From a virus (taxonomy: Duplodnaviria > Heunggongvirae > Uroviricota > Caudoviricetes): a stretch of DNA of 64,000 nt. Below are positions 17,631 through 51,510 of this stretch, one piece after another. Each line of letters opens with the position of its first letter. Position 1 is the stretch's first letter. The stretch is from the IMG/VR virus record IMGVR_UViG_3300032018_000003, one strand, 5' to 3'. A program made the position numbers and the translations under genes. The notes beneath the pieces were generated by a model. It did no database searches. It was not told the origin of the DNA and was given only the letters and a program-made list of their open reading frames with translations.

Positions 17631-17639
17631 TACCTGCAA

Positions 17640-18296: not shown

Positions 18297-18334
18297 GTGT
18301 ATATGAATAGTATAGTGGTATAGACATTAGTATA

Positions 18335-18669: not shown

Positions 18670-18676
18670 TTATAAT

Positions 18677-20315: not shown

Positions 20316-20316
20316 A

Positions 20317-20709: not shown

Positions 20710-20887
20710 TACTGCACCTTTATATCACTACAACATTTTCTTCTATTCTTTTTAGTTAAAAATAATTCGACATTCTTTGGAAACAAATAACACAAATCAT
20801 TAAATCTCATAATAGCTCTATCTTTATCTTTATATAACTCATTGATAACTTGTCCGTTTCCTTTTCTGACAAATATTTCATACACCA

Positions 20888-27385: not shown

Positions 27386-27389
27386 TTTA

Positions 27390-29932: not shown

Positions 29933-31138
29933 TCATTTCGATTCCCCCTTAAACATACTCTTAAATATTTTTGCTGCTACACTAACTGTCCAACCATTTC
30001 CTGCTAGATGATATAAATGACTTTTTGCTATACCTTCTATAATAATCTCATCTCTTAAAAAACCCTGTAACCTAAAACATTCTTTTGGTGTTAAACGTCT
30101 TATTCTTTGGTTTGTTATTAATACCTCTTTCGGTTCTCCTGCTTGTAAACATCTATGAACATTACTATCTTGTGGAATGTATGTTGTTAAAGGACGATCT
30201 TCTTTCCCATGTTTTAAATGATATATATCTATTTGTTGAGGTTCGTTCTTTTCTAACTCTAATTTTTTTGCTACATCCAACGCTATATTAAAATCGCGTG
30301 TCACTGTATTAAGTAATATTTTATTATCGGCTGCAACGGTACATGTTAATGTTGGACTTATACCATTAACACTATATATTCTTTCTCTATCAAATTCCGC
30401 ATCCATATTTAATTGTACTATTTCGTCAACAAAACACGGTACATCACCACCGACTTTTAATGTTCTACACGGGTTATTTATATCTATAGGTTGTCTTTCT
30501 TTAAAATTACTTTTATTTATACCATTGATTGCTCGTTCAGATAAAAAATAACTTTCATCAACTTCTTTTTCTAATACGTCTTTAAGAAATAATTTAAGTG
30601 GTTCTTTGTTTGGAAATTGAAATTCCATAAAGTCCCATGTGCCTAATTTACATACAAACCAAACACGTTCCCTATTTTGTGGTACACCGTAATCTTTACT
30701 ATTTAATACTTTATGACAAACATCGTAACCTATTTCTCTTAAACAATGTATCATCTTTTCAAACGTTCTACCATCGTCAATACTTAATAGTCCCTTTACG
30801 TTTTCTAATAACATATATTTAGGTTTCTTTACTTTTGCTATTCTTAACACGTCCCAAAATAAAGTTCCTCTAGGATCAAGTTCACCTAAACGTTTTCCAC
30901 TTATAGAAAAACTCTGACAACAAAACCCTGCTGTAAGTAAATTAAAGTCTGGTACTTCTTCCGGTACTATTTTACTTATGTCACCATAGTTTTTTATTTT
31001 ACCATGATTTAATTCATGAATCTTTATTGCATGTTTATCTATCTCTGATATACCTACACATTTAAATGGAAGTCCTAATTGTTTTAATGCAAACAAATCT
31101 GCACCATAACCGGAAAATGTACTAAAGACTTCTATCAT
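29933..31138 (-). CDS. DNA (cytosine-5)-methyltransferase (401 aa)
   Basis: Motif I FSGYGA, a PCQ-type motif GFCCQSFS and ENVKGL are present. Confidence 0.85.
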   Translation of the reverse strand: MIEVFSTFSGYGADLFALKQLGLPFKCVGISEIDKHAIKIHELNHGKIKNYGDISKIVPEEVPDFNLLTAGFCCQSFSISGKRLGELDPRGTLFWDVLRIAKVKKPKYMLLENVKGLLSIDDGRTFEKMIHCLREIGYDVCHKVLNSKDYGVPQNRERVWFVCKLGTWDFMEFQFPNKEPLKLFLKDVLEKEVDESYFLSERAINGINKSNFKERQPIDINNPCRTLKVGGDVPCFVDEIVQLNMDAEFDRERIYSVNGISPTLTCTVAADNKILLNTVTRDFNIALDVAKKLELEKNEPQQIDIYHLKHGKEDRPLTTYIPQDSNVHRCLQAGEPKEVLITNQRIRRLTPKECFRLQGFLRDEIIIEGIAKSHLYHLAGNGWTVSVAAKIFKSMFKGESK

Positions 31139-32119: not shown

Positions 32120-32974
32120 TTATTTAAAATCTCCGTTTAATCCGTGGGTTTCTTTTATTTTTTGTATTTCCTTTTCACTAAAAAAATCATTTTTAAGTTT
32201 AACTATTTTTTTAGTGTCTGTGTTTTTATCAACCATATCTAATATATTTTTTATTACTATATTTTTAGATTTGATTTCTCCTACACCACAACAATTATTA
32301 TTCGCATATATGTTTTTGATTATAAATAAATTATTATCATACAATTTAATTTTTTCTATAAGTTCTTTTATTTTTTTATTTAAATTATTTTTTGTATTAT
32401 TGTATCGTTCTTTATTATTAATATTTTCTAATTCTTTTTCTAATTTTATTAATTCCTCTTTATATTGTTTTGATAATTCACTCAAATCAAAATATGTTTT
32501 CTTAGTTACCTTTTGTAAAACTTTAGATTTATACTTCCATATAAATTCATATTCGTTATTATTCATCTTGAATAATATTAAATTTTTAGCATAAGTTTTA
32601 CCATTAAATATCCAAAGCATTTTATCATAAAACTTTTCACGATTTTTAATATCTTCGGAAGAAATAGGACTATTTTGAAATTCTACAACATATTTTTCAT
32701 TAATCATAACATCTGCAATATGTTTTGTTAATTGTTTTTGTACAATAATTTCTCTATTATTTAATGGAAACTTGTTTTTCCATTCTACGTGCCACTGAGT
32801 TTCTCCCTCTGACCAAGTATCACAATCAGTTCCTTTTTTATGCGCCCAATGCCACACATTAATATCTCCACATTTAGATATTACTTCCTCACCACATAAT
32901 TGACACATTCCTTTTTTTCCTGGTTCTGCAACCGTTTTTTCATTATTACTGTTTATTACATACAACATTTTCAA
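32120..32974 (-). CDS. CoiA-like (competence protein CoiA family) nuclease-domain protein (284 aa)
   Basis: CQLCGEEVISKCGDINVWHWAHKKGTDCD...WH has the CoiA-like Cys cluster plus HWAH. Confidence 0.5.
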   Translation of the reverse strand: MKMLYVINSNNEKTVAEPGKKGMCQLCGEEVISKCGDINVWHWAHKKGTDCDTWSEGETQWHVEWKNKFPLNNREIIVQKQLTKHIADVMINEKYVVEFQNSPISSEDIKNREKFYDKMLWIFNGKTYAKNLILFKMNNNEYEFIWKYKSKVLQKVTKKTYFDLSELSKQYKEELIKLEKELENINNKERYNNTKNNLNKKIKELIEKIKLYDNNLFIIKNIYANNNCCGVGEIKSKNIVIKNILDMVDKNTDTKKIVKLKNDFFSEKEIQKIKETHGLNGDFK

Positions 32975-32978
32975 TCAC

Positions 32979-35681
32979 CTAAAAATCTTCTTTAATTCCT
33001 ATCTGTACTCCAAATAAGGAGGATTCTTTTTTTGGTTCTTCTATTACTTTATTATTTTCTTTTTTTGGTTCTATAGCTTTAAATCTAACGTTTCTATAAT
33101 AATAATCTCGTTGTCTATCCACCATCGTATTTTTATAATCTACTCTTAATATATTTCTTAAATGGTAATTAAAGGTGTTTACTGTATCTATTTCTAAATC
33201 GTTTTCTCCACAAAATTGTGCGTATGCGTCTAATAACATATCTCTTTCAATACTACTTCCACTACAAAATTCAAGACGTCCAGAAATATATTTTTCCGAA
33301 CTACACCCATATATCTTAAATTTGTTTGTTATATCTTCTATAGAATCATTATAACTAAACCCGTTTTGATTTAATATTCTTTTTAATCCTTCTATTGCCC
33401 AATTTAATATTCCTGACATCTCATCTTTACTAAATAAAATGTCGTTTATTACATCGGGATTTCCTTTTTTAATAAGTTTTTTTTCGTCTTCGTTTACTTT
33501 TAATATCTCACTATCGTAATTTTTTTTATCATAAAATTTATATTTAAATTCTATTATCTTAAATCTTAAAAAAGAAGCCTTTGTTTTATCGTCTGGGTCT
33601 GGCATGGTGTTTAAAGATATAATATGCTTTGCAAATGGAGTAAAATCAAGAGATGATAAAAATTTTCTTTTTGCTGATTGCGTGTCTCCCCCCGTTAATT
33701 TTTTAATAGTATTCATATTAATTTTTTTATTTTTATCTACCTCAGAACTTATATTAATATATTTAGAATGTAATTCAGATAATTCAAAAGCATCACTTGC
33801 TAAATTAGATAATTCGAAATTTTTATAGTTTGTTTTACCAAACATTTTCTGAATTATTTTTAAAAATTTACCTTTTCCGTTTCTACCTGAACCAATAAGC
33901 ATAAGAAATTTATCAAATTTAGGAGTTCTGTGCAGACAATAACCAACAAACTCTTGTAAACTTATTTTGTCTTCTATGTTTTGTTTTATATCAATTCCGC
34001 GTTCATCTTTACTTGGCCCAATAACACTATCTAAAAATATTTGAAATTTGTTGTATTCTTTTTCTGAATTGTATGAAACATTTAATCTACTAAAAAATTT
34101 ATATTTTGGATTATAATTAATTAACTTATTTTGCTTTAAATCGTATAAACCGTTTCTTAATGGTATTAAATAACTCGGTTCGTCTGCAAACAATATTTTA
34201 GAATCTGTTTTTGTTGATTCTATATGTTCCATTATTTTATTAAATTTTAAATCTGTATAAGAATTAATTACTGTATTATCATCTAATATATCGTTTTCAA
34301 ACATATCGTAAACTATTTTTTTTAATGTATCTCTTCCATTATTAATATATATACCATTAGTATAAACATATACTTCTGAATGACTTTCGTTTTTTGTAAT
34401 ATAAATTTTATAATTATCTAATATATAATTAACTGCTAAATCCACCCCTTTAGATATTACTATAGGACTTTTACTTCTCATTAAAAAATGTATATCACGT
34501 AACACTTGTGTTCTTTCTTCTTCGTTTTTATGACTTAAATTTAATGGTATTGGTTTTAAATCATTGTGTAGTGCAATAGTTTCTTCAATGTATTCTTTTT
34601 TCATGTCGTCATCTAAAGACAAAAAATATTCTTTATCTTCTTCTTCTGTTATATGAGAATAAAACTCGTCAAATATATCGTTAATGTTTTTTTCTGCCCA
34701 TTTAATTTTTTTCCCAACACATTCTATTTTCCAATGGTCACATATCTCTTGCATTGCGGTTTTAAATGTTATTTCTTCTCCTGAATCTACTTTATGTTTT
34801 GCCTGCCACAACGAAAAAATATTATATCCTTTTGCTTCATGATAACAGTATGCAACCTCGTCATTTATATGAAGGTTTCCTTTTCCATGCATATCATGTA
34901 ATGGACATTTAACTACGGTGTTATTAGATACATCTGTCCCCATATATTCTAAAACATCTTTTATTTTTACTTTCTCACATACCGCCTGCATAAAAGGATT
35001 TAGTTTTTTTATTTTATTTTCTTCTTCTTTTATTTTATCTTCGGTGTTTAATTCAAATGTTTTTTCTAATTCGTTTAATGTTAAATTTGATATTTCACAG
35101 TCTTTAACAATTTCATATCTTCTTCCTGTACCTCTATTAATAGAATTTGGTCCAACAACTTGAGACCCCCTTCCTTGTAAATCTACAAGGGTTGTTCTTT
35201 TTCCATCAACTTCGATAGATACGGGTTTTTTCTTAAATTCTTTATCTAAAAAATAATAATAATGATATAACCCACTTCCACCGGTTTTTACTATAAGAGT
35301 GTCTTTTAAAATTTTTTCTTTTTCTTTTTGATATGTTTCCTCATCAAAATCTATAACTACAAGATTATTAACCCCACATAAAACTCCATAATTATTAACT
35401 TTTATATGATTTAATAGTTTATTATCATCATATCTATAATTAGTACAAAAATCTTTTAAAAATCTTATCTTTACTTTTTTGTTTTCTTTCTTTTCTGAAT
35501 CTAAAATTTCAATAATGTTTTGGTCTTCAAGACGTTGTAATGCAGTTTTATATCCTGTTGTTACTATATCCCCTGTTTTAAATCCGTTTTCTTTGGTATA
35601 AAATAATTCTATTGGTGTTTTTTCATTCAATAGAACGAATCTAAACATATCTTTTTGTAGAACTTTAGGTATTTGAATCAT
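32979..35681 (-). CDS. D5-like primase-helicase (900 aa)
   Basis: A C-terminal SF3-type P-loop LIGSGRNGKGKFL is present. There is also a Zn-binding CPLHDMHGKGNLHINDEVAYCYH segment and an N-terminal prim-pol-like VVIDFDEE. Confidence 0.7.
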   Translation of the reverse strand: MIQIPKVLQKDMFRFVLLNEKTPIELFYTKENGFKTGDIVTTGYKTALQRLEDQNIIEILDSEKKENKKVKIRFLKDFCTNYRYDDNKLLNHIKVNNYGVLCGVNNLVVIDFDEETYQKEKEKILKDTLIVKTGGSGLYHYYYFLDKEFKKKPVSIEVDGKRTTLVDLQGRGSQVVGPNSINRGTGRRYEIVKDCEISNLTLNELEKTFELNTEDKIKEEENKIKKLNPFMQAVCEKVKIKDVLEYMGTDVSNNTVVKCPLHDMHGKGNLHINDEVAYCYHEAKGYNIFSLWQAKHKVDSGEEITFKTAMQEICDHWKIECVGKKIKWAEKNINDIFDEFYSHITEEEDKEYFLSLDDDMKKEYIEETIALHNDLKPIPLNLSHKNEEERTQVLRDIHFLMRSKSPIVISKGVDLAVNYILDNYKIYITKNESHSEVYVYTNGIYINNGRDTLKKIVYDMFENDILDDNTVINSYTDLKFNKIMEHIESTKTDSKILFADEPSYLIPLRNGLYDLKQNKLINYNPKYKFFSRLNVSYNSEKEYNKFQIFLDSVIGPSKDERGIDIKQNIEDKISLQEFVGYCLHRTPKFDKFLMLIGSGRNGKGKFLKIIQKMFGKTNYKNFELSNLASDAFELSELHSKYINISSEVDKNKKINMNTIKKLTGGDTQSAKRKFLSSLDFTPFAKHIISLNTMPDPDDKTKASFLRFKIIEFKYKFYDKKNYDSEILKVNEDEKKLIKKGNPDVINDILFSKDEMSGILNWAIEGLKRILNQNGFSYNDSIEDITNKFKIYGCSSEKYISGRLEFCSGSSIERDMLLDAYAQFCGENDLEIDTVNTFNYHLRNILRVDYKNTMVDRQRDYYYRNVRFKAIEPKKENNKVIEEPKKESSLFGVQIGIKEDF

Positions 35682-35903
35682 CTAATCAAACACTCCTTTA
35701 ATAGTTAAAACAGAAACATTATCAAAAGTTAATAGTATTTTACCTACCTTAATATCATTAAAAAGAAATTCGTTATCAAATACTTCGTTTATATTACCAT
35801 TATAATAGTAAACGTACCCGTTTACATCTTTTTTAGAAATCTTTATTGTCTTATTTCTAATAGATTCAAAATATTCTTTTTTATTCATTCGATTCAATTC
35901 CAT
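35682..35903 (-). CDS. hypothetical protein (73 aa)
   Basis: ORF from track. Its start abuts the primase-helicase stop. Confidence 0.3.
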   Translation of the reverse strand: MELNRMNKKEYFESIRNKTIKISKKDVNGYVYYYNGNINEVFDNEFLFNDIKVGKILLTFDNVSVLTIKGVFD

Positions 35904-35977
35904 AAAGATATTAATCTTTATTATTTAAATAACACTATACCATTTATATAATGTAACTTGTTTATATAGTTTGTGTT

Positions 35978-36536
35978 TCTAAAAAAACTTCTTTATAATA
36001 AAAATTTAGATATAATCTAATTACATAAGTTTTTTTAGAAAATATATATTACATAAGTTTTTTTTCTGTTTTTATAACTATTTATTATAATGTTAAGATT
36101 TTTTAAAAATAGTACTTTTTTGTAGTAACACAATAAATTAACATTTTTTTTGACATTATATATGTTTTCAAAAATATATATTGCGGTATATAATTCCCTA
36201 GGTTTTAGTGTTTTTTTGGTGTTTTTTACCCTTTTTTCTAAAAAAACTTATGTAACGAAAACAGATTTATGTAATGAGGGTATTGTAAAATGCTAGTATA
36301 ACCCATATATCATAGAAAAAAAAATATTACATACGTTACATACGACATTTCGAAAATTGGTATACAAAATATTTCTAAAAAAACTTTATAACCTATTTTT
36401 GTGTATTACCTAAATAGTAGTAAAAACATTAAGCGCGTTGTTAAAAATAATTTTTTTTATATACGAAATGGTATATACGAAAATTATAATATAAAATTCA
36501 TACTGAAGTTGAAAACGCTTATGTAACGTATGTAAT
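35978..36536. promoter_or_regulatory. strand-switch intergenic region with repeated TTACATAAG/CTTATGTAA and TCTAAAAAAACTT motifs
   Basis: TTACATAAG at 36021 and 36049. Its reverse complement at 36248, 36267 (variant) and 36518. TCTAAAAAAACTT at 35978, 36238 and 36374. Confidence 0.45.
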
Positions 36537-36595
36537 TTTCGAATAGTATATTAGAAAAGGTAATTATATAAATACCATTTACTATATTTAACATA

Positions 36596-36736
36596 ATGTT
36601 TAAAGAAATACATTTAGCAGCAATTGATGCTGCGCGTATCTTTGGTGAGGACTATCATCTAAGCTGGATATTTTTCTATCCACTTTGGTTTGTCGCGATC
36701 CTTGTCACGTTTAAAAAAGATAAAGGAGATGTTTAA
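36596..36736 (+). CDS. small membrane protein (46 aa, not in track)
   Basis: Manual translation MFKEIHLAAIDAARIFGEDYHLSWIFFYPLWFVAILVTFKKDKGDV. Confidence 0.3.
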   Translation: MFKEIHLAAIDAARIFGEDYHLSWIFFYPLWFVAILVTFKKDKGDV

Positions 36737-36855
36737 TGAAAGGAACTTGTGATTATTGTGGTGAATATGATTATTTAACATTTAAAGGATTATGTAAAGG
36801 ATGTCATATTAAAGAATATGGTAAAAAAGATTTTGAAGAAAACGAACGGATGTAA
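36736..36855 (+). CDS. small zinc-ribbon protein (39 aa, not in track)
   Basis: MKGTCDYCGEYDYLTFKGLCKGCH with an AGGAG SD upstream. Confidence 0.35.
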   Translation: MKGTCDYCGEYDYLTFKGLCKGCHIKEYGKKDFEENERM

Positions 36856-36896
36856 TATAACATAACACTATTCAATATTAAATAGGGTAACTAATT

Positions 36897-37196
36897 ATGG
36901 TAACTTTGATACAAAAAGAATATTATAAATGTGATTATTGTTCTTATACCGATGAAGATGAAGATGATGTAAAAGAACATATGATAGAACATCAAGAATC
37001 TCCTATCAAAAAAGAAGAAGATGTATATGTTTGTGATGTATGTAAAGAAGAATTTAAAAGAAGTACTTACGCAGTAACGTGTGAAGATAAACATAAAAAC
37101 AATAATGATAAAAGATATCAAGCGTTTCTTGAAGATCAACAAAGAACTAAATTGTTGTGTGAAGGTAATAAACCTAACCAAAAAAAACTTTTCTAG
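36897..37196 (+). CDS. C2H2-like zinc-finger acidic protein (99 aa)
   Basis: Carries CDYCSYTDEDEDDVKEHMIEH and CDVCKEEFKRS. Confidence 0.4.
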   Translation: MVTLIQKEYYKCDYCSYTDEDEDDVKEHMIEHQESPIKKEEDVYVCDVCKEEFKRSTYAVTCEDKHKNNNDKRYQAFLEDQQRTKLLCEGNKPNQKKLF

Positions 37197-37202
37197 TAAT
37201 TC

Positions 37203-37224
37203 AAACAAATATATATATAAATCC
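37203..37224 (+). promoter_or_regulatory. plus-arm promoter motif AAACAAATATATATATAAATCC
   Basis: One of at least 8 copies of the A-A-C-W-ATATA(TA)TAAATA(C)C element that lie 20-60 bp upstream of plus-strand genes. Confidence 0.4.
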
Positions 37225-37275
37225 ATAAAGATATATTTTCTATTAGTTATAGTTATCAAAGGGAGGACGATTAAA

Positions 37276-38154
37276 ATGAATATGAAAATGTTATTAATTA
37301 TGGTGTTTACAATAATTCTGGGTGCAGGTATAGTATCTGCGTATACAACCACAGCAATGTGTAGTTACGCAACAACAACAGATGGTACTGATTGGAACCC
37401 AATGAGTAACGATACGTACACGACAATAACATTTACTGGAGACACTTCATTTAATTCATTAACTGACGTTACTCCTAGATTAAATACTACTTTTTTCTAT
37501 TGTGAGAATTTTGTACCAGCAAATAAATCAGTAAGTTCTTTATTCTATTATCATCCGGGTACTATTGTAGGTACTGCAGCTATTATGAATGTTACTAATA
37601 GTACAGGAACCGTTGTAGGTGGTGGTAATTATACAGTAGCAAACAATACCGCGGGATTAACAACATTAACATGGTCATTTAATACAGCTTCTTTTAATGA
37701 TACAACTTTAAGAGTATGTTATAATAAAACATTAGTTAAAGTTACAAACGTAGCATATAATGATATTGCACATCCAAACGGAGTATTATGTACTAGTTGT
37801 ACTTTATTATCAGCAACAGGTGGCGCAGATTTCGGACAGACTTATAGTGTAAGATTAGCAAGACCAGAACTTAACGGAACTAGTTATGCAGCATACTGGA
37901 CATTAGCAACACGAACTTGTGTAGCACGTGACGGATGCCAAGCAACAAGAACAATTGTGTTTGCAGGTTACGCATTAATTGCATTGTTTGCAATAGTAGG
38001 AGCAGCATTCTTTATAGTTAATATTGTAGGAAAAGGCGGAGCCGATATGGCGACTGCAGGAGTAATGGTAGTTACTATTATAGGACTTGCTATTGTTATA
38101 CTTGTAGGATACTTAATAACAGGAATTGTAAGTACCGCGATATGTACCGTCTAA
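37276..38154 (+). CDS. secreted, C-terminally membrane-anchored putative glycoprotein (292 aa, start set at MNMKM)
   Basis: AAAGGGAGGA SD upstream, a signal peptide, more than 12 N-x-S/T sequons and two C-terminal transmembrane helices. Confidence 0.55.
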   Translation: MNMKMLLIMVFTIILGAGIVSAYTTTAMCSYATTTDGTDWNPMSNDTYTTITFTGDTSFNSLTDVTPRLNTTFFYCENFVPANKSVSSLFYYHPGTIVGTAAIMNVTNSTGTVVGGGNYTVANNTAGLTTLTWSFNTASFNDTTLRVCYNKTLVKVTNVAYNDIAHPNGVLCTSCTLLSATGGADFGQTYSVRLARPELNGTSYAAYWTLATRTCVARDGCQATRTIVFAGYALIALFAIVGAAFFIVNIVGKGGADMATAGVMVVTIIGLAIVILVGYLITGIVSTAICTV

Positions 38155-38248: not shown

Positions 38249-38509
38249 ATGAAAAAAGTAATATTAGTATTGATGTGTTTGGTGTTAGCACAAGCAGCAT
38301 TCTCATTAAATTTTGAATTGAATAAAGACACAGATTTTACTAAAGAGAGATGTTTAATAAAAATGTCTTATGCGGACGATAGTAGATATTTTGTACAACA
38401 GTGTGCACAACCAACATATTTAGATATGTTTTATTCTACACACAAAGTACCGTTTGGTTATTTATATGAAAATAATCTAAAGGTAGCACCTATCTTTTGT
38501 AGTAATTAA
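38249..38509 (+). CDS. small secreted Cys protein (86 aa)
   Basis: Signal peptide MKKVILVLMCLVLAQAAFS. Confidence 0.45.
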   Translation: MKKVILVLMCLVLAQAAFSLNFELNKDTDFTKERCLIKMSYADDSRYFVQQCAQPTYLDMFYSTHKVPFGYLYENNLKVAPIFCSN

Positions 38510-38681: not shown

Positions 38682-39077
38682 ATGTTAAAACCAATACCAA
38701 GAATGAATATAATGGGTAAGATACTAGGCGGCACTACAGCAAGGACTGGCGGTGTAGTAGGCAATATTCTAGGACATAATAAGTTTGGTGGGGCGACAAT
38801 GAGTAGACAGCACCAATGGGGTTCATTCTCAACCACACAAAAGAATTCATTAAGAAAGAAGTATCCTGATTCTGATGGTGACGGAGTTCCTAATAGATGG
38901 GATTGTCAACCCCATAATAAAAGATTCCAAGAGGAAGAAGATGAAGATGAAGAGTATGACCAAGAAGAAAGTAAAAAATATTTTGAAGAATTAGAAAAAA
39001 AGAGAGAAAAAGAAGAAAAAGAAAAAAGAGAAAACTATTTATACTTTAAAGGATGGAAAAAAATGAGAGGAGAATAA
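38682..39077 (+). CDS. thrombospondin type-3 repeat protein with KE-rich tail (131 aa)
   Basis: YPDSDGDGVPNRWDCQP matches the DxDxDGxxDxxD calcium-binding repeat. GGAGG SD upstream. Confidence 0.5.
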   Translation: MLKPIPRMNIMGKILGGTTARTGGVVGNILGHNKFGGATMSRQHQWGSFSTTQKNSLRKKYPDSDGDGVPNRWDCQPHNKRFQEEEDEDEEYDQEESKKYFEELEKKREKEEKEKRENYLYFKGWKKMRGE

Positions 39078-39354
39078 ACAATGGCAAAAACCACACAAGA
39101 TATATTTAATAGAGTAATGAACGTGAAGTTTGAACAATCTATATTTTCACACAATAACAATAAAAAGAAAGGATCTAAAAGACACGAAGAAGAAGAGGAG
39201 GACGATTAATATGGCAGATACTAAAAAAACAGTAAATAAAATGTTAAGTGGACAACCAACCACATCAGAAAAGATTTATAAGAATACAACAAGTAAACCA
39301 CACGATAAGATAGTTAATAAAATAATTAAAAGATAGTTGGGAGACTAAATAACA

Positions 39355-39675
39355 ATGGGTAATTTTTATAGTGATTATTTCTTTGGTAACAAAGACGGAC
39401 AATCATCTCAAGTACCGCAAGGTAATTCCGGTGGCGGAATGTATGGTGGTATACCAAGACGAACACCTTCGCTTGGCGGAAGTAGTATGTCTACGTTTGG
39501 ACAAGGAGTACCGGCAAAAAGAACTTTCTATTCAAGAAATAGCATGCAAGAAGCTGAACAAATGTGTATTCAAGCAGGGTATAGACCAATAGGTAAATTA
39601 GTTAATAAACATGGACAAAATATTGTCTTTGGCCGAATAATTCAACAACAAGCACAACAAAGAAGTTATAATTAA
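39355..39675 (+). CDS. Gly/Ser/Gln-rich hypothetical protein (106 aa)
   Basis: ORF from track. Confidence 0.35.
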   Translation: MGNFYSDYFFGNKDGQSSQVPQGNSGGGMYGGIPRRTPSLGGSSMSTFGQGVPAKRTFYSRNSMQEAEQMCIQAGYRPIGKLVNKHGQNIVFGRIIQQQAQQRSYN

Positions 39676-39876
39676 AGGTATTATAATGAACTCTCAACTT
39701 AAACTAGGTATTAGAACAGAACGAGAACATCGTAGTACTTATATGTTTATTCAAAACTATTATAAAAAGTTTGGTAAGATGCCGAGTCAAACTGATGTAT
39801 ATAAACACATTGCTTCTAATCATCTTTCTGAAAATCCTAAATATTATACAAAACTAAATAAAGCGAGGTTGTAATA

Positions 39877-42003
39877 ATGTTTAACATAGATAAATCATTA
39901 AAAAATATAATGGGTACTACTAAACGAAGTTCTAACACATTTAATTTTAAACAAAAGTCTCCTATGTTTAAACCAGTAACTTCTAATAGAACTAATAATA
40001 TAGTTAATAATATGTTATCTAATAAACAATACAAACCCGCGTCACCTAAAATGCAGATGCAATGGAAATCATTTTCTACACCAATGAAAAACATTATGCG
40101 TTCTAAATATCCTGATAGTGATGGTGACAGAATACCTGACCGATGGGATTGCAAACCAAATAATCCTTTTATGACAATGGCGTTTATATATCCAACAGAA
40201 CAGGAAATGAAAAGAACTGGTGTTAAAAAAATAAGTTTCCCAGTTAAAAAATTATATAATATGAGAGCTGATTATGGCATTGATAAAACAAAAACATTTC
40301 GTGGAGATAATACATCTTTTAGTAATTCAGAGGAAAGAATTCGTACAAAGATAGAAAATGATTGGCGAGAAAAAAATAAAGAAAGAATAGAATTAAATAG
40401 TAACGTAAATCAACTTTTATTAGATGATGCTATTAGAACAAATACATTGGATGATTGGAACCCGACACGTATAGAACCTCCATATCCTGAAAGAAAAGAA
40501 GTGTTTAAAGAATATGTTAAAGAAGAAAAAGATAAATATGAAAAAGAAAAAGGATTTAAATTAGGTTCTCCAAAAATAAAAAAAAGTAGTTATTATTATG
40601 TTGCGACTTTACCAATAAAGTTTACTAAAGAACAATTAAATGAAAAAAGAAAAAATGTAATGGTAACAGGTCATACACAAGTAGAAGAAGATTTTATGGG
40701 TAGACATGGTGGGTATATTCCAAATTCTCCTGAAGCTGATAAATATATGAATAATTTAACAGAAGCTATACAATCAGAAAAACCACTCGTGCCACCAATT
40801 GATTTATCTATGAACGATATAAGAAATAAACATACTGGTGAAGCTCGACATAGATTAAGTGTATTACAAAATATAAAACAAAAAAATGTAGATATTATAG
40901 TACCAGACACTCACGATTATAAAACTATAATACATAAAGGAAATTTAAAAATAGTTCCTAGAAGTGAAGAAGAAGAAAAAGAATGGAGAAGAAACAGAAC
41001 TCCAGTAGAACAAATATATCCGGAACATGCACCAATAGAAAAACAACAAGAGTGGAAAAATACACCAGAAGCAGAGAAGGAAGTTATTAGAGAATTATTA
41101 CCCGATGGTGATGGTGACAATAAACCAAAAGGATTTGATTGTGATGATACTAATAAAAATAAACAGGATAGTAAACCTAACAGATTAATGCGACAAAGAA
41201 TTGATAACGCAAATATTCAATTTCTTCATCCAAACGTCAAAACTGCTTTTCGTAATCAATCTTCAATTATACCAGATAAATATAGACAAAACGTTTTTAT
41301 GGGAACTTTAAAAAGACATCCAGAAATAATAACAGAAATAGAACGTAAACCCAAAGTTTCTTTTATGTTATATAACGAAAAAGAATATAAACAAATGTAT
41401 CCTGAAAGAAAAAATATACCTAACGGCGTAATGTTAAGTCAATCATATAATCGTTTACATGGCGAAGATTTGGAAGATTCTCTTGTAGTAGCATTAAATA
41501 TAGATAAAGGGGCAAATCGTTCTCCACAACAAAGAGCAAGAACAACACTACATGAGTTTGGACATGTTCATAGTTATCAAACACAACCAAAAGGTGCTTT
41601 TGTAGAACGGTATGGTAGAGAATTAGCAAGAAAGGTTCCGTATGAGGAACTGACAGAAGAAAAAATAGCAAACGAATACGCCGATTCTATAATGTATGCT
41701 GCTCCAGAAGAAAAAAGATATAATGAAATTACTAATATAAAAGCGCAAGAAATAAAAGAAAGGGATGAAAGTTCAAAAAAACAAGGAGTTTCTCGAGAAG
41801 AAATTGTTCCACAACTAGTAGATGAATGGAATTCTTTTTTAGATGAACAATCAAACGTTGTAAAACAAAAAAAAGAAGAACGATCTTATGAAGAGCATAG
41901 AAAATTATTTAATGAAGATACTCCTATAGAACCCTCTATCGAACAAGATACTCAAGAATACCCTCGTGACAGAGAAGATAAAATGAACGTGTGGGAAAAG
42001 TAA
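39877..42003 (+). CDS. HExxH zinc metallopeptidase with two thrombospondin type-3 repeats (708 aa)
   Basis: TTLHEFGHVH zinc motif. YPDSDGDRIPDRWDCKP and LPDGDGDNKPKGFDCDD repeats. The N-terminus is a paralog of 38682..39077. Confidence 0.55.
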   Translation: MFNIDKSLKNIMGTTKRSSNTFNFKQKSPMFKPVTSNRTNNIVNNMLSNKQYKPASPKMQMQWKSFSTPMKNIMRSKYPDSDGDRIPDRWDCKPNNPFMTMAFIYPTEQEMKRTGVKKISFPVKKLYNMRADYGIDKTKTFRGDNTSFSNSEERIRTKIENDWREKNKERIELNSNVNQLLLDDAIRTNTLDDWNPTRIEPPYPERKEVFKEYVKEEKDKYEKEKGFKLGSPKIKKSSYYYVATLPIKFTKEQLNEKRKNVMVTGHTQVEEDFMGRHGGYIPNSPEADKYMNNLTEAIQSEKPLVPPIDLSMNDIRNKHTGEARHRLSVLQNIKQKNVDIIVPDTHDYKTIIHKGNLKIVPRSEEEEKEWRRNRTPVEQIYPEHAPIEKQQEWKNTPEAEKEVIRELLPDGDGDNKPKGFDCDDTNKNKQDSKPNRLMRQRIDNANIQFLHPNVKTAFRNQSSIIPDKYRQNVFMGTLKRHPEIITEIERKPKVSFMLYNEKEYKQMYPERKNIPNGVMLSQSYNRLHGEDLEDSLVVALNIDKGANRSPQQRARTTLHEFGHVHSYQTQPKGAFVERYGRELARKVPYEELTEEKIANEYADSIMYAAPEEKRYNEITNIKAQEIKERDESSKKQGVSREEIVPQLVDEWNSFLDEQSNVVKQKKEERSYEEHRKLFNEDTPIEPSIEQDTQEYPRDREDKMNVWEK

Positions 42004-43045: not shown

Positions 43046-43387
43046 ATGGAAAAAATAATTTGGAACAATAAAATAATAAAAGCAGATTTTAAAAAAGGAG
43101 ATAGAATTAAAGTTATTAATACTTTATTAATGTGTGGGCAATATTATAATTATGCAAGAATTTTTATGAAATATAATATTATGTTAGAAGTTAAAAAAAT
43201 TCATAAATGTACACATTGTAATAAAAAAACAAAACCGTTTTTCACGTATGGATGTAGTATAATAAAAAAAGATAATGATAAATTAATAAAAACATTGGAA
43301 AAAGTAAAAAAACCAGACGATGTTTTAATATTTGATTATGCAACATTATTATATTATTATAGATGTAATGATATAAAAAAGGTATGA
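43046..43387 (+). CDS. hypothetical protein with CTHCNKK motif (113 aa)
   Basis: ORF from track. Confidence 0.3.
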   Translation: MEKIIWNNKIIKADFKKGDRIKVINTLLMCGQYYNYARIFMKYNIMLEVKKIHKCTHCNKKTKPFFTYGCSIIKKDNDKLIKTLEKVKKPDDVLIFDYATLLYYYRCNDIKKV

Positions 43388-45561
43388 AAATGATAAGAAG
43401 TTCATTTTCCCAAACTAATATGTTTAGTCACTACCCTCGTCAATGGTATTTTAAGTATGTATTAAAGATTAAGGAAGTATCAGATTTTTCTTACGCGAAT
43501 GGTGGTACAGCCGTACACAAAACCGTTGAACAATTATTATTAAAAAACATAACTGAAATTGAAGCATTAAAAGAATTCTTTAATAACCAATGGGATAGTT
43601 TTAATTTAAGTAGTTCTATAATAAAACATATGAAAGACAAATATTGGTTAATGGTACTTAATGCAAGAGAACGAAATATTGAATGTACCGATATAGAAAG
43701 TGAAATAAATTTTCCTGATGTTCGTATGTTTTTAGATATATTAAATAAAAACACTTGGGAAATTAGAGATTTAAAGACGAGTAAACGTGATGATAAACAC
43801 GATAAAGAATATACCGATCAAACATTACTATACGCGTGGGGAATATTGCGACAATATAATGTACTCCCGAGAAAACTAACTGTCGATTATTTACAATATT
43901 CCGGTAGTAAAGGTATATTAGAAATTGTACCAACACAACAAGACATTGATAGAATTTCTAAATGGTATAACGATTGTGGATCAGAAATGGAAGCGTTATC
44001 TAATTTAAAGATTTGTCCAGCTAAATGTAAAGAATGTAACCCGTGGTGTAGTTTTACAAAAGAATGTGCTGCAGAAGAGAATGAATTTACTGTTAAATTA
44101 AATATATGGAACAGTTTAATATTTATTAATTGCGAGTTTAATGATATAATAAATAAACAATTACATAAGAAATTTAGTTATGTTCAAACCAAAGACGCAT
44201 ATATGAATAAGAAATGGAACAAACAAAACCCCACTATAGATTTTTATAATGAAACTAAACATAGTTTACCATTAGGGTTTAAGACACAACTAATAAAAAC
44301 GTTTACTGATTATTGTGAATGGAAGAAATGTAAACTAAATTTAATTATTAATGATACACGCCAGTTTAATGAAGCTAAAATAATAATGCCAGAAAAATTC
44401 TTGAACGGAAATGAGTTAAGATACTATCAAAAGGATGCAGTTAAAGTAGTATTAGATAATAAAATTGTTTCAATACAGTCCGCAACCGGAAGTGGTAAAA
44501 CAGAGATGTCAATAGATGTTATTAGACAATTAGGATATAAAACATTGTTTATTGTCGATAGAAAAGAATTAATGAAACAAACAATAGAACGAATAGAAAA
44601 ATGTTTAGGTGTAGAGGTTGGTAAGTTAGGTGAAGGGGAACGAGATTTAAAACATATTACTGTTGGTATGATACAAACAATTAATAGTAACATAAACAAT
44701 AACGATCAAGAAATTATAGATTATTTGAAAACAATTAGGTTTACTATATTTGATGAAGCTCATAAATGCGCAGCAGATTCTTTTATTACATTAAATAAGT
44801 GTCTTAATAATTCTGAATATAAACTTCTTATGTCGGGAACTTTAAGACGTAATGATGGAGAAGATATGAAATTATATTCTATTGGTGGTGAAATTAAATA
44901 TACCAAACAAGCAAAAGAATTAATAAACGAAGATATCCTTATGAATCCTAAAGTTTATTTTATTAAAGATTATATGACACGCGAACAAGAACACGAAATA
45001 AGACTATCGTGTAGTACAGGATTAATTAACGCGGAAGACCAATATCCTATTTTTTATGATAAGTTTATCGTTACAAATAGTTTAAGAAACGAATTAATAA
45101 AACAAGTAGTAGATGTAGTTAGTAAAAACAACAAGAAAGTTTTAATATTAGTTAAGTTGATAGAACATGGAAAAATATTAGAACAGTTAATTCCTAATAG
45201 TAAATATTTGTATGGCGAAACACCAAAAAAGGAACGGGAAGAAATATTTAACGATTTTTCTCATGGTAATCTTAATGTAATGATTTCTATGGTAACGATG
45301 ATGAGTGAAGGATTAGATTGGCCGTCACTTGAACTTTTTTTGATGGCGAGTGGTATAAAAACAGATAATAAAATAATACAAGGCATTGGCAGAATATTAC
45401 GTAAATGTAAAAATAAAGAACAACCAAAATATATTGATTTTATGGATTATGGTGGTATGATTAGGAATGCCAGCGTGTGTAGACGTCGTGCATTAAGACG
45501 TGAAGGATATTATATTAACGAAGTTACATTAGACGAGTTCATAGAAACACAAACTATATAA
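43384..45561 (+). CDS. Cas4-like RecB-family nuclease fused to SF2 DEAH helicase (725 aa)
   Basis: N-terminal nuclease motifs and the Cys cluster CPAKCKECNPWCSFTKEC. C-terminal helicase motif I SATGSGKT, motif II FDEAH and motif VI-like QGIGRILR. Confidence 0.6.
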   Translation: MKMIRSSFSQTNMFSHYPRQWYFKYVLKIKEVSDFSYANGGTAVHKTVEQLLLKNITEIEALKEFFNNQWDSFNLSSSIIKHMKDKYWLMVLNARERNIECTDIESEINFPDVRMFLDILNKNTWEIRDLKTSKRDDKHDKEYTDQTLLYAWGILRQYNVLPRKLTVDYLQYSGSKGILEIVPTQQDIDRISKWYNDCGSEMEALSNLKICPAKCKECNPWCSFTKECAAEENEFTVKLNIWNSLIFINCEFNDIINKQLHKKFSYVQTKDAYMNKKWNKQNPTIDFYNETKHSLPLGFKTQLIKTFTDYCEWKKCKLNLIINDTRQFNEAKIIMPEKFLNGNELRYYQKDAVKVVLDNKIVSIQSATGSGKTEMSIDVIRQLGYKTLFIVDRKELMKQTIERIEKCLGVEVGKLGEGERDLKHITVGMIQTINSNINNNDQEIIDYLKTIRFTIFDEAHKCAADSFITLNKCLNNSEYKLLMSGTLRRNDGEDMKLYSIGGEIKYTKQAKELINEDILMNPKVYFIKDYMTREQEHEIRLSCSTGLINAEDQYPIFYDKFIVTNSLRNELIKQVVDVVSKNNKKVLILVKLIEHGKILEQLIPNSKYLYGETPKKEREEIFNDFSHGNLNVMISMVTMMSEGLDWPSLELFLMASGIKTDNKIIQGIGRILRKCKNKEQPKYIDFMDYGGMIRNASVCRRRALRREGYYINEVTLDEFIETQTI

Positions 45562-45775: not shown

Positions 45776-46480
45776 ATGAAGATTGACAAAACAGAGATAG
45801 TAAACTTTTTTAAGAAAATTAGAATGGATAAAGACGAAAAGATTGAAGAAGCAAAATTTAACTTTGATACTAATGGACTTAAAGTATTAGCAACGTCTAA
45901 TACTAAATCAACACAAGTGAGTGCATTATTAAAACCTGCTGCATTTAAAGAATATGAAAAAATTGGTGTAGTAGCAATAAACGATCTTACTAATGTTCAA
46001 GGAGTATTTGATAGATTTAAAGGAGTTATTACAATTAAAAAAAGTGGTAATTGTATGATAGTGAATGGGGACAACAAAAAAGTTGATATTGAATTGGTAA
46101 GCGAACAGTTTCTTGTAAATGAAAAAGAACCCCAAGGATTAGTTTTTGAGAACGAAATTATTATTGATAGTACAACATTAAAAGAAATTGTTGCAGACAT
46201 TGAACTTAATAAAGAAGCAGAATTAATTGTTACTACAGGAGATAAGGTAGTTAAATTTAGTAATACCGGAAAATATAAATTTGAGACTACACTTGAAGCA
46301 CCATTATGTAAAGTAGGAACTGTAGTAAAATTCGGTCAAGCATTTATTGATGCAACAAAAAATCTTAATGGTATGTTGAAACTACATGTAGGAACAAATT
46401 ATCCATGTAAGATTGTTGAAGAGTCTGATATAAGTACAATAAGTATAATTATTGCACCGCGTATAGCCGACTCAGAGTGA
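45776..46480 (+). CDS. candidate sliding clamp (PCNA-like), weak (234 aa)
   Basis: The size and alternating hydrophobic pattern fit PCNA, and it lies directly upstream of the RFC-like gene. No strict motif was seen. Confidence 0.35.
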   Translation: MKIDKTEIVNFFKKIRMDKDEKIEEAKFNFDTNGLKVLATSNTKSTQVSALLKPAAFKEYEKIGVVAINDLTNVQGVFDRFKGVITIKKSGNCMIVNGDNKKVDIELVSEQFLVNEKEPQGLVFENEIIIDSTTLKEIVADIELNKEAELIVTTGDKVVKFSNTGKYKFETTLEAPLCKVGTVVKFGQAFIDATKNLNGMLKLHVGTNYPCKIVEESDISTISIIIAPRIADSE

Positions 46481-46816: not shown

Positions 46817-47713
46817 ATGACATTCAACCCTAAAGATATTGTTTGGACCGAGAAATATAGACCCAAATTAGTAAACGAAATTGTTGGAGATTTTAAAGAT
46901 AAGATAAAAGAGTATCTTAAAAATTCTGATAACATGCCACATTTTTTATTTTACTCACGTACTCCTGGAACCGGGAAAACAACAATTGTAAAAGCAATCA
47001 TTAATGAACTTGGTTGTGATAGTATAACAATAAACAGTTCCGATGATAGAGGTATAGAAGCAATAAGAGAAAAGGTTAAAGAGTTTGCTAAATCTAAAAG
47101 TAGTAATGGTAATAGGCGTTGTGTATTCTTAGACGAAATTGATGGTGCGACTCGTCCTGCACAAGATGCTCTTCGTAATATAATGGAGACATACGCAAGT
47201 AACGCATTTTTTTGCCTCACATGTAATAATATAAATAAGGTTTCGGATGCGATACAATCACGTTGTGTATGTATAAATTTCGCATACCCAAATAGAGACG
47301 AGATAAAAAAATATCTTGAAATGATATGTGAAAAAGAAAATTTAAATTATACTGATGAAGGACTTGATGAAATATTAAAATATAATTATCCTAGTATAAG
47401 AAATTGTGTTATATGTTTACAAGACTTGAAAACCGAAAGTAAAGATATAACAAAAGAAAATATTAAACCTATTAATAGTATGTTTGAAGAAATGTGGCAG
47501 AAAATAAAAAACAAAGAGTGGAAGGATATTAAAATTATTATAATGGAGAGTACACTTGACGCGAGAGAACTTAATACTTATTTTTGGGAGAAAGCATTAG
47601 AAGAAGAAAATATTAAAATTATTCAAACATGTTGTAGAAATGAAAAGGATATTAGTACTGGTGCAGATGCTAATATTATAGTAGTAACAAGTTTAATTGA
47701 GATGGTAAAATGA
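46817..47713 (+). CDS. rfc: replication factor C small-subunit-like clamp loader (298 aa)
   Basis: WTEKYRP box, P-loop RTPGTGKTT, Walker B FLDEIDG and SRC motif QSRCV. Confidence 0.8.
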   Translation: MTFNPKDIVWTEKYRPKLVNEIVGDFKDKIKEYLKNSDNMPHFLFYSRTPGTGKTTIVKAIINELGCDSITINSSDDRGIEAIREKVKEFAKSKSSNGNRRCVFLDEIDGATRPAQDALRNIMETYASNAFFCLTCNNINKVSDAIQSRCVCINFAYPNRDEIKKYLEMICEKENLNYTDEGLDEILKYNYPSIRNCVICLQDLKTESKDITKENIKPINSMFEEMWQKIKNKEWKDIKIIIMESTLDARELNTYFWEKALEEENIKIIQTCCRNEKDISTGADANIIVVTSLIEMVK

Positions 47714-50260: not shown

Positions 50261-50827
50261 ATGGTTATAGTAAATAATATTGTTATTAATACTTTAGTTC
50301 AGCAAAGAACTGCACTAATAATGCATTTTGAGAAGAAACTTATTACTGAAGAAGTATATAAAAAACAACTTGAAGAAATTAATTTTAAACTTAAACAACA
50401 ACAAGATTTGTTTATTAAAGATGCGCAAAAAACAATAGACGAAGAAATAAAAGAAGTTAGAAAACAAAACTTGAAAAAAGAAGTTATTAAAAAAGTTATA
50501 GAAGAAAAGAAAATAGAGTTACCACGATTGGTATTGAAACCAATACTTATTACCAAACCAATTAAATTTCATCCAAAAAAAGAAGTTGGAGTTCCTTCAT
50601 TAAGAAGTATTATAATAAAAACATTATGCGGCGGTATAGTTAAATCACACGATGATGTTATACGTGAAGTTAAAAAGGTTTTACCTAATATAGATGATAA
50701 AAAAATATTATATTTTTCAAAATACACAATCCTTTCAGTTAAGAAAGGAGATTTAAGATATAAAGAATATAAGTGGGAAGACGAAAGATTTTTATTAACA
50801 AGGAGTGATATACAATGCCAAAAGTAA
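50261..50827 (+). CDS. Lys/Glu-rich hypothetical protein (188 aa or shorter)
   Basis: ORF from track. The promoter motif lies at 50227-50242. Confidence 0.3.
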   Translation: MVIVNNIVINTLVQQRTALIMHFEKKLITEEVYKKQLEEINFKLKQQQDLFIKDAQKTIDEEIKEVRKQNLKKEVIKKVIEEKKIELPRLVLKPILITKPIKFHPKKEVGVPSLRSIIIKTLCGGIVKSHDDVIREVKKVLPNIDDKKILYFSKYTILSVKKGDLRYKEYKWEDERFLLTRSDIQCQK

Positions 50828-51510
50828 CATTTGATACATATGGAGATAGAAAAGAAGATACGTTTGAAGAAAAAAAACACAGTTCTCTATGGGATAAAAC
50901 TAAAGGCTGGTTTAAAAAACAAGCAGAGAAGAAAGAAGAAGATAATAAGTTTAAAGAAGAAATTCGTTCAGAGGCGTTAAAAGAAGCTAAAGTTGAAGTT
51001 GTACCGATTCTACAGAAACAATATAAACAACAAGAAATTGATAGATTAACAGGAAAAAATAAAGGTGATCTAATGGAAAAATTTAAAAATAGTTTAAGTG
51101 GCGCAAACGGAAGTTTTATTGCAAGTGATGAGAAGTTGGATAGAATGCTAGGAAAAAAAAAAGTTAATGTAGACTCTTCATCAAAAGAAGAATCTTCTAC
51201 TGGTGGGTTAGCAAGTAACGATAAATTAATGGGAATGTTAGGAAAAAACAAAGACAAAATTAAAGAAGAGAACCATACAAAAGGCGTTTCTAATGACGAT
51301 ATTATGAATATGATGAGTACAAGTAGTGGAAAACACAGTAACAAAAATGCAGTAGACGAAGATAAAATTAAACGTGGCTTAAAAATTAAAGAAGATAAAG
51401 AGAATTCTAAAGTAGTTGATAATGATAAAATTAGTTCTATGTTAGGAAAGTCTGGTAGTAATAGTAGTACACAAGATAAACTTGATAGAATGCTTGGTAA
51501 GAAAAAATAA
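50815..51510 (+). CDS. repeat protein with 5 copies of an (S/T)xDK(L/I)xxMLGKxK module (231 aa)
   Basis: SDEKLDRMLGKKK, SNDKLMGMLGKNK, SNDDIMNMMSTS, DNDKISSMLGKSG and TQDKLDRMLGKKK read directly. Confidence 0.4.
   Translation: MPKVTFDTYGDRKEDTFEEKKHSSLWDKTKGWFKKQAEKKEEDNKFKEEIRSEALKEAKVEVVPILQKQYKQQEIDRLTGKNKGDLMEKFKNSLSGANGSFIASDEKLDRMLGKKKVNVDSSSKEESSTGGLASNDKLMGMLGKNKDKIKEENHTKGVSNDDIMNMMSTSSGKHSNKNAVDEDKIKRGLKIKEDKENSKVVDNDKISSMLGKSGSNSSTQDKLDRMLGKKK

Follow-up and report, generated by a model that had tools for sequence, protein, structure and literature searches.

Two open reading frames on the plus strand of a viral DNA stretch of 64,000 nucleotides (the window) encode proteins of 131 amino acids (38682-39077) and 708 amino acids (39877-42003), which on balance, and judged as one explanation, belong to a large, previously undescribed modular family that combines a constant leader with swappable enzymes and is carried by uncultivated, AT-rich double-stranded DNA viruses of roughly 65-116 kb. 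The larger product is most likely an intracellular effector of early infection that is processed by its own protease, with enzymes that act inside the host cell and not on its wall. The virus lineage in question has neither a cultured member nor database annotation, and its family provides a clean natural system, in which one leader and one repeated module of ~50 aa frame ParB-like, zinc protease, GNAT, ART/Tpt1 and HNH domains.

The element common to all of these proteins is the module (consensus GAS..QxQWKxFS...R....D(S/T)DGDxVPxxWDCxPxN), in which Q, W, D, D, D, P, D, C and N are invariant. It is composed of a helix (GAS..QxQWKxFS...K...R) and, as its C-terminal half, an acidic loop (D-x-D-G-D-x-V-P-x-x-W-D-C-x-P-x-N) that resembles thrombospondin type-3 (TSP3) repeats. 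The N-terminal copies in the 131-aa and 708-aa proteins are 52% identical over 62 aa (BLASTP, E 6e-23), as the sequence-only reading had recognized, and the module of the smaller protein also aligns with an internal copy in the larger one (34% over 47 aa, E 3e-7). In the window, a module HMM detects exactly three copies (domain E-values 1e-26 to 4e-19): copy 1 at 38775..38939 (+; residues 32-86 of the 131-aa protein, E 2e-26), copy 2 at 40021..40179 (+; residues 49-101 of the 708-aa protein, E 1e-26), and copy 3, of the internal type KQQEW..., at 41017..41175 (+; residues 381-433, E 4.5e-19). Their acidic loops, DSDGDGVPNRWDC (38868-38906, +), DSDGDRIPDRWDC (40114-40152, +) and DGDGDNKPKGFDC (41104-41142, +), all follow the pattern D-x-D-G-D-x-x-P-x-x-x-D-C, and the regular expression D.D.D.{6}DC matches the six-frame translation of the window three times, compared to zero matches in 200 shuffles. 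At the DNA level, only about 17 nt around GATGGTGAC are conserved between the three copies; this modest identity led us to reject the idea that module copies drive recent recombination.

All three loops carry D at positions 1, 3, 5 and 12, in agreement with the calcium-binding pattern DxDxDGxxDxxD, while position 9 varies between N, D and K; the loop consensus of the family is D(S/T)DGD(R/G)VP(D/N)xWD. A similar loop (D-x-D-x-D-G-x-P-D-x-x-D followed by C-x-P-x-N) is present in TSP3 repeats, bacterial TSP3-like proteins and the Ca-binding domain of the B components of binary toxins (anthrax PA, C2-II, Vip). The best, non-significant PDB profile matches to the module are the segment DTDRDGIPDEW of C2-II and Vip and an OmpA TSP3-like protein. 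Generic bacterial TSP3-like proteins, exemplified by locus L012, have the loop in common with the module, and the matches listed from a scan of GTDB genomes are all loop-only matches in such proteins. However, the proposal that the loops are genuine TSP3 repeats does not hold in the family sense: the loops are part of a larger, novel 50-aa module, neither window protein matches Pfam TSP_3 (PF02412) at E<=1, the family member P0003 reaches 6.9 bits where the cut-off is 25, and just one among 88 family members reaches E 0.0088. The module also falls below the Binary_toxB threshold. Tandem arrays with paired cysteines are absent; the units in the 708-aa protein are single, lie 330 aa apart, and contain one invariant cysteine each, which leaves no disulfide-paired cysteines. 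Moreover, the module possesses a preceding conserved helix with invariant Q and W, which TSP3 repeats lack, and its carriers, in contrast to TSP3 proteins and binary toxins, are apparently intracellular viral proteins. The module might bind Ca2+; it could thereby act as a folded, calcium-dependent junction, and also provide a handle by which the proteins are sorted or tethered.

The 131-aa protein is a leader-only paralog: an N-terminus with h-h-N-I-h-G motifs (MNIMGKILG, GVVGNILG) and one module are followed by an acidic/lysine-rich tail (residues 84-131), and P0036, P0038 and P0140 are small homologs with the same layout. The 708-aa protein has the composition of a polyvalent-type protein, i.e., a leader that starts with the motif IDKSLKNIMG (39886..39915, +; residues 4-13), a ParB/Srx-like region, an internal module, a zincin-like peptidase, and an acidic, low-complexity C-terminal tail (41827..42000, +; residues 651-708), which was read from the sequence and for which the search gave no homologs other than the window's own protein. 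The domain order module, ParB, module, peptidase recurs in P0011 and P0114.

Residues 100-385 (40174..41031, +) are predicted from sequence to form a ParB/Srx-like domain that contains an alpha/beta insertion. Its core motif, GEARHR (40837-40854, +; residues 321-326), is of the GxxRxxA type with the active-site arginine, and its H and R are invariant, its G nearly so, in 12-14 aligned domains. The peptidase domain follows at 41194..41826 (+; residues 440-650) and contains the HEFGH motif described earlier (residues 559-563, nt 41551-41565). H559, E560 and H563 are invariant in 16 aligned domains, and E595, located in the segment EEKIANE (41644-41676, +) 32 residues after H563, is at least 90% conserved, as is A598. 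In the predicted model, the domain adopts a zincin core fold with an N-terminal helix and a three-stranded sheet; the HExxH motif lies on helix 111-130 and the conserved glutamate on helix 154-167. Sequence and model thus assign a zincin-like, gluzincin-type peptidase to the 708-aa protein, with E595 as putative third zinc ligand. The same arrangement of HExxH on one helix, glutamate on a later one, and a core of N-terminal helix and three-stranded sheet is seen in ImmA/IrrE (M78), SprT/Wss1 (WLM), ArdC MPTase, M34 anthrax-LF-like proteins and minigluzincins. Of the two classes originally considered, the gluzincin assignment therefore stands, whereas the metzincin one, which calls for HExxHxxGxxH and a Met-turn, does not: the sequence HEFGHVHSYQ lacks the glycine at +3, and H565 is not conserved in homologs. 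Pfam families Peptidase_M78, MPTase-PolyVal, SprT-like, WLM and ATLF give no match at E<=1 with the protein or at E<=10 with the excised domain, and other family members show weak peptidase matches (ATLF 0.0033, M78 0.0031). Similarly, neither the whole protein nor the module or the peptidase domain has significant PDB-sequence matches (phmmer and profile searches).

The extent of the family became apparent from a phmmer search with the 708-aa protein against 1.84 billion representatives (E<=1e-3), which yielded 171 matches, almost all via residues ~48-100 and ~385-435. The module is a new, easily searchable marker for such effectors in metagenomes, defining at least 171 clusters at 50% identity. 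It occurs in 151 of 152 cluster representatives (198 copies, 1-4 per protein; a single copy in 113 of the 151) and always between domains, ahead of each cargo domain. A ParB-like domain is present in 25 members and this peptidase subfamily in 17, with both in 5; Pfam annotation of 88 members adds GNAT, Tpt1/KptA, PARP, HNH_repeat, an intein, and several weak metallopeptidase families. Domain orders are mosaic (P0001-P0004), median protein length is 257 aa, and genes for two to three leader proteins adjoin one another in the window as well as in L001, L002, L004 and L039. A kinase-like nature of the L039 paralogs, which was considered as well, found no support in the PDB search or Pfam. In a metagenome scan, true family members were found on contigs of 1-5 kb only, and tblastn with the 708-aa protein against GenBank phages gave no match; a word-indexed search with the module alignment retrieved one protein.

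Polyvalent proteins, regarded as the first weapons deployed by a phage or plasmid on entering a cell, provide the closest precedent. As defined by Iyer et al. (2017; PMC5512222), they have the MPTase as main hub domain, which is partnered by DdrB-like ParB, ART, GNAT and kinase domains, and those of phages usually adjoin late or virion genes. The family described here likewise combines at least two distinct effector or enzymatic domains in one viral polypeptide, with a zincin-like MPTase hub, ParB/Srx and GNAT/ART partners, shuffled architectures and tandem paralogs. By analogy, the closest counterpart of the 708-aa protein may be DdrB of phage P1, which consists of ParB and a C-terminal MPTase in the same order and is processed and packaged (PMC5512222). 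Direct homology was not detected: in hhalign comparisons with DdrB, the HExxH helix alone aligns (probability 9%) and nothing is found for the ParB part, which makes the relation one of architecture and not of demonstrable homology. Searches of the 708-aa protein against Pfam, PHROG and NCBIfam return none of MPTase-PolyVal, ddrB-ParB, ParBc, M78 or SprT at E<=1, and for the 131-aa protein, too, these collections yield no peptidase, ParB or TSP3 match. In contrast to the polyvalent proteins, the family is marked by a constant N-terminal leader and by a putative calcium-loop junction module, both undescribed in PMC5512222, its members are smaller, and it is embedded among replication genes.

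This genomic setting contradicts the suggestion that the two ORFs are located among envelope and structural genes. Instead of late or virion genes, the wider neighborhood in the window comprises a primase, a nuclease-helicase, a PCNA-like clamp (45776-46480) and a clamp loader, and this cluster is syntenic in related viral contigs, with the same context in L004, L038 and L042; such a setting weakens a step in which the proteins are packaged into virions. No structural genes were recognized in the window or related loci, a result that speaks neither for nor against virion association. The presumed secreted glycoprotein upstream does have a basis, namely a membrane protein rich in sequons (37273-38154) and a small secreted protein (38249-38509), but not the structural setting ascribed to it, and terminator-like hairpins separate these genes from the operon studied here. 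Scanning for sigma-70 promoters revealed no enrichment, and tRNAs were not found. Since helicase, primase and clamp loader have only distant matches (25-35% identity) to unrelated phages, no taxonomic placement of the virus can be derived from them.

Based on these observations, the proteins would most likely act in the host cell at the onset of infection, either by early expression or after entering together with the DNA. Cleavage of the polyprotein by the zinc peptidase, which might take place at the junction modules or close to them and possibly extend to host targets, would free the ParB-like nuclease or NTP-binding effector. A virion-associated or secreted, Ca2+-stabilized TSP3-repeat metalloprotease that attacks the host envelope during entry or lysis, or matures the capsid, appears improbable in comparison. 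Such a protease would account for the resemblance of the acidic loops to extracellular calcium loops and for the membrane and secreted proteins encoded 0.2-1.4 kb upstream; moreover, phage polyvalent proteins can be packaged (PMC5512222), by analogy with which virion association of the 708-aa protein is possible, and two weak BFVD matches are annotated as “minor capsid component” or “minor capsid protein.” However, the N-terminus is hydrophilic, and a signal peptide or transmembrane segment is absent, and neither a family nor a fold of cell-wall hydrolases was detected. The zincin core with its HExxH motif is instead joined to a ParB/Srx-like domain, in a family whose cargo consists of enzymes working inside cells. 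The replication-gene neighbors and the intervening hairpins argue in the same direction. Finally, the prohead proteases known so far belong to the serine proteases and have other folds. The proposal of a secreted, cell-wall-degrading or capsid-maturation protease is thus replaced by that of an enzyme which is probably involved in intracellular processing or itself an effector, rather than in degrading the envelope.

Two further alternatives place the peptidase inside the cell as well. It could be a DNA-associated replication or repair protease similar to SprT/Wss1 that removes DNA-bound proteins, with the ParB-like domain as DNA recruiter and the module helix tethering cargo to the PCNA-like clamp of the virus. 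The invariant Q-x-x-W-x-x-F/M of this helix indeed has PIP-box-like spacing, but it lacks the second aromatic position that a PIP box has (F-S), many other zincins, YbeY among them, reach equal scores, and cargo that includes GNAT, ART/Tpt1 and HNH-repeat domains, together with the rapid shuffling, is more in keeping with conflict effectors than with a core replication factor, so that we regard this role as unlikely. Less probable still is a regulatory protease of the ImmA/IrrE type, with a repressor or defense regulator as its substrate in an M78-like switch. The sequence E-K-I-A-N-E-Y-A on the third-ligand helix resembles the ImmA/IrrE signature, E..AN.FA; IrrE, CapP and an IrrE-like phage protein are among the fold matches, and one family member matches Peptidase_M78 (E 0.003). 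Yet the 708-aa protein itself lacks such a Pfam match, an HTH/Xre partner gene is not adjacent, and the multidomain mosaic architecture differs from that of ImmA/IrrE modules.

Within the favored explanation of an intracellular effector, the leader deserves separate attention. It comprises a short amphipathic motif ([IF]DKxLxxh[LM]G), a low-complexity spacer and the ~50-aa module, and the motif, written in full as [IF]-D-[KN]-x-[LI]-x-x-h-[LM]-G, is present in at least 58 of 152 representatives, in addition to MFDIDKILG variants. Constant N-terminal leaders are known from packaged phage proteins, namely the capsid-targeting sequence (CTS) of T4 internal proteins and the MuF-fused polymorphic toxins. 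As in these systems, otherwise unrelated cargo proteins from adjacent genes carry a constant leader, and the motif has about the same length as the T4 CTS; however, the leader has no sequence similarity to either and contains no MuF domain. A speculative possibility, to which we assign a low probability, is that the leader is a new device for sorting and release. The N-terminal motif (h-D-K-x-L-x-x-h-L-G|K) would then direct proteins to the capsid or a hub and signal cleavage, by a logic like that of the T4 CTS, and the module would be a Ca2+ switch: the TSP3-like module might keep cargo enzymes folded or tethered inside a calcium-rich particle, and cutting by the fused zinc protease might free them in the low-calcium host cytoplasm. 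In contrast to the T4 CTS, the motif also occurs internally, four to five times, in a charged protein (50815-51510) that is encoded next to a J-domain protein (51751-52302).

Short products are also encoded between the two main ORFs. A 62-aa DUF5661 protein (39686..39874, +; Pfam PF18905, E 7e-8), whose stop codon lies 2 nt upstream of the start of the 708-aa gene, has a positional homolog in L042 (8941-9066). Two tiny ORFs of 42 and 41 aa (39081..39336, +) carry the same short motif as the leader (IFNRVMN; TVNKMLSG...KIVNKIIKR) and have positional homologs in L042 and L001; when all six frames of the window were searched for the motif, three of five matches fell within 39.1-40.0 kb.

The two neighbouring genes on which the sequence-only reading had centred lie in an AT-rich window (GC 25-33%), in which the coding strand changes over at about 36 kb, as does the GC skew. 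Both open reading frames were recovered as that reading gave them, encoding proteins of 131 aa (38682-39077, +) and 708 aa (39877-42003, +), and its acidic motifs were confirmed at three sites (38868-38906, 40114-40152 and 41104-41142): the pattern D.D.D.{6}DC has three matches in the six-frame translation of the window, versus none in 200 shuffles. The N-terminal parts are paralogous, as had been proposed (52% identity over 62 aa, E 6e-23), and this part of the 131-aa protein also matches an internal copy in the 708-aa protein (E 3e-7). A word-indexed search returned only three relatives; an exhaustive phmmer search of 1.84 billion cluster representatives returned 171 at E<=1e-3, nearly all aligning to two stretches of the 708-aa query, residues ~48-100 and ~385-435. 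An anchored alignment built from 141 N-terminal and 43 internal copies yields a module of ~50 aa, a helix followed by an acidic loop, with the consensus (K)GAS..xQxQWKxFSxxxKNxxRxxxxD(S/T)DGD(R/G)(V/I)P(D/N)x(W/F/Y)DC(Q/E)PxNxx(K/R)QD, whose invariant residues are Q, W, D, D, D, P, D, C and N; internal copies read KQQEW...DTDGDxVPDEYDCEP. With an HMM of the module, 198 copies were detected across 151 of the 152 family representatives (one in 113 proteins, two in 31, three in five, four in two), in every case between other domains, and exactly three in the window. Because the module is conserved around them in these copies, the acidic loops are the C-terminal half of a larger domain, apparently undescribed so far.

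The earlier assignment of the loops to thrombospondin type-3 (TSP3) repeats holds only in part: the loop resembles a TSP3-type calcium loop, but neither window protein obtains a TSP_3 score in a Pfam search, the units never occur in tandem, and each carries one Cys. The module is TSP3-resembling and lies outside the TSP3 family. The best PDB profile matches of the loop, to calcium loops of C2-II, Vip1/Vip4 and an OmpA-family TSP3-like protein, are non-significant (E 0.14-1.3); single family members make weak Pfam contacts (Binary_toxB, E 0.0017; TSP_3, E 0.0088), and near-identical loops occur in generic secreted bacterial proteins (e.g., DRDGDGVPNRFDSRPNNPYRD in contig L012). Judged by its motif, the module plausibly binds Ca2+ and might serve as a folded junction or handle. 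The module helices at 40051-40074 and 41050-41073 have the spacing Q-x-x-W-x-x-F/M, with F or M three residues past W, which would fit a PIP-box-like clamp-binding peptide; a PCNA-like clamp is encoded by the virus itself (45776-46480).

Residues 440-650 of the 708-aa protein are a zincin-like peptidase of the gluzincin type. HEFGH occupies residues 559-563, as the sequence-only reading had it, and among 16 aligned homologous domains P482, H559, E560 and H563 are invariant and E595 and A598 near-invariant, giving the pattern fHExxHxxQ ... P..E..A..y. In the AlphaFold model of the domain (pLDDT 74, pTM 0.68), an N-terminal helix precedes a sheet of three strands, and E595 sits on a helix that comes after the HExxH helix. 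Its BFVD matches are IrrE-like and SprT-like phage proteins. Since E595 supplies a putative third zinc ligand, the peptidase reading stands at superfamily level; of the metzincin or gluzincin character once suggested, the latter is retained, the metzincin signature being absent from the domain. Residues 100-385 hold a likely ParB/Srx-like core (...LTEAIQSEKPLVPPIDL...HTGEARHRLSVLQNIKQKNVDIIVP), with H325 and R326 invariant across family copies. No Pfam model matches this region; a profile of the family copies, run on PDB sequences, matched SbnI (E 0.01), ParB and sulfiredoxin, and the ParB/Srx superfamily accounts for 11 of its 14 matches.

The family is a mosaic. In P0001-P0004, leader, ParB-like and HExxH domains are joined in differing orders, and the window order (module, ParB-like, module, peptidase) recurs in P0011 and P0114. 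Further cargo found by Pfam in 88 members includes GNAT acetyltransferases, Tpt1/KptA and PARP-type ADP-ribosyltransferases, HNH-associated repeats and an intein. A leader-Tpt1-like-module-peptidase protein adjoins P0002 in locus L002, and L004, a 116-kb IMG/VR contig, encodes proteins of 1146 and 659 aa with ParB-like, GNAT-like and HEAGH segments. Scant room for cargo is left in the 59 of 152 representatives that are at most 200 aa long; the 131-aa protein consists of a leader alone, as do its small homologs. In L039 (NCBI GCA_029972165.1, contig JARKUL010001496.1, 7371-14705), each of three tandem paralogs (875, 833 and 732 aa) opens with the module and continues with a Gly-rich-loop motif (IGKGYYGAVFG...YVVK) of kinase-like look that has no Pfam or PDB support; the three adjoin TROVE/Ro60-like, vWA and Band_7 genes. 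This architecture of variable enzymatic cargo, MPTase hub, tandem paralogs and constant leader is that of the polyvalent proteins named by Iyer et al. (2017; PMC5512222); polyvalent effectors with MPTase and ParB-like domains are an already known kind. [quoted passage not shown] Direct homology to P1 DdrB is not detectable, hhalign aligning the HExxH helix only, and PMC5512222 makes no mention of a calcium module. No description of the lineage, its leader or its TSP3-like junction module is present in the libraries and literature searched.

The leader genes are flanked on one side by a PrimPol/D5-type primase-helicase gene (32979-35681, -) and on the other by a replication-type run comprising a 197-aa protein gene, a PD-(D/E)XK nuclease-SF2 helicase (43384-45561), the clamp and an RFC/gp44-like clamp loader (46817-47713). 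This order is the same in L038 (a second assembly of the same virus), L004 and L042 (a 66-kb contig), and no capsid, portal, terminase or tail genes were recognised in the window or related loci. The genes for the sequon-rich membrane protein (37273-38154) and the small secreted protein upstream are followed by terminator-like hairpins, and no homologs of either were seen at this position in L004 and L042. The placement among envelope and structural genes is therefore unsupported, as are the ideas of a cell-wall-degrading enzyme and of a maturation protease that it had favoured, given the replication context and the hydrophilic N-terminus of the 708-aa protein, which lacks a transmembrane segment. 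Rivals of the polyvalent-effector reading are that envelope or maturation protease, an ImmA/IrrE-like regulatory protease and a SprT/Wss1-like protease that associates with DNA and is tethered to the clamp.

Beyond the observed domain anatomy, conserved catalytic residues, modular shuffling and replication-cluster context, the precedent of polyvalent proteins suggests that the proteins act within the host at an early stage of infection. The zincin domain would process the polyprotein, probably at junctions, and may also attack host proteins, while the ParB-like part could be a nuclease or an NTP-dependent effector. As delivery route, early expression is mildly favoured over packaging by the replication context, and the N-terminal motif that the proteins share points to a partner in common, for sorting or binding.

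This motif, [IF]-D-[KN]-x-[LI]-x-x-h-[LM]-G (e.g., MFNIDKSLKNIMG, MFDIDKILGKKK), starts most members; at least 58 of 152 representatives carry it, variants being additional. The Asn/Ser/Lys-rich spacer that follows can repeat it, with about eight copies in a 364-aa protein of L001. Unexpectedly, the same motif, as DK(L/I)xxMLGK, recurs in four to five copies, including the C-terminus, in a charged 231-aa protein (50815-51510, +) encoded beside J-domain (51751-52302) and SF2 helicase (52292-53578) genes; repeats and neighbourhood are both kept in L042 (homolog at 1581-2084, -). Related KKIVNNIIG-like motifs stand at the head or end of several tiny ORFs (40-75 aa) adjoining leader genes, in runs whose position is kept in three related contigs (window 39081-39336, +; L001 5369-5765 and 7346-7726; L042 8316-9672); with one regex, three of five six-frame window matches fall within 39.1-40.0 kb. 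A 62-aa DUF5661 protein (39686-39874, +; E 7e-8) has its stop 2 nt ahead of the 708-aa gene start, and L042 has a similar small ORF (MNQLQKGIMVESEHK...) at the same position.

Elsewhere in the window, the GC skew changes sign and its cumulative curve reaches its minimum at a divergent intergenic region within 35700-37350, a possible origin or early-promoter region. Next come the gene for a 99-aa protein carrying C2H2-like zinc-finger pairs (36897-37196) and then that of the membrane protein with its many N-x-S/T sequons. Similarity to family-B DNA polymerases is divided among at least two ORFs (26060-28783, -), one with a weak Pfam DNA_pol_B match (26060-27385, -) and one with a PHROG DNA polymerase match (28016-28783, -), separated by a 120-aa ORF; this polB gene could be split, interrupted or degraded. 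A 1211-aa protein (56806-60441, +) without a family match combines a long N-terminus rich in Ser/Gly with a hydrophobic central stretch rich in Gly/Ala, and two small ORFs downstream (60489-61122, +) with long hydrophobic stretches encode probable membrane proteins; a morphogenesis or envelope module may begin here. The minus-strand arm carries accessory genes for an acylphosphatase-domain protein (12753-13448, -), a DUF932 protein (20888-21802, -), an SPFH/Band_7 protein (24174-25148, -), a C5 cytosine DNA methyltransferase (29933-31138, -) and a CoiA-like nuclease (32120-32974, -). In L042, region 15983-21202 contains an intein with LAGLIDADG within the clamp-loader gene, together with QueD/PTPS and GTP cyclohydrolase I genes, which suggests 7-deazaguanine DNA modification in that related virus.
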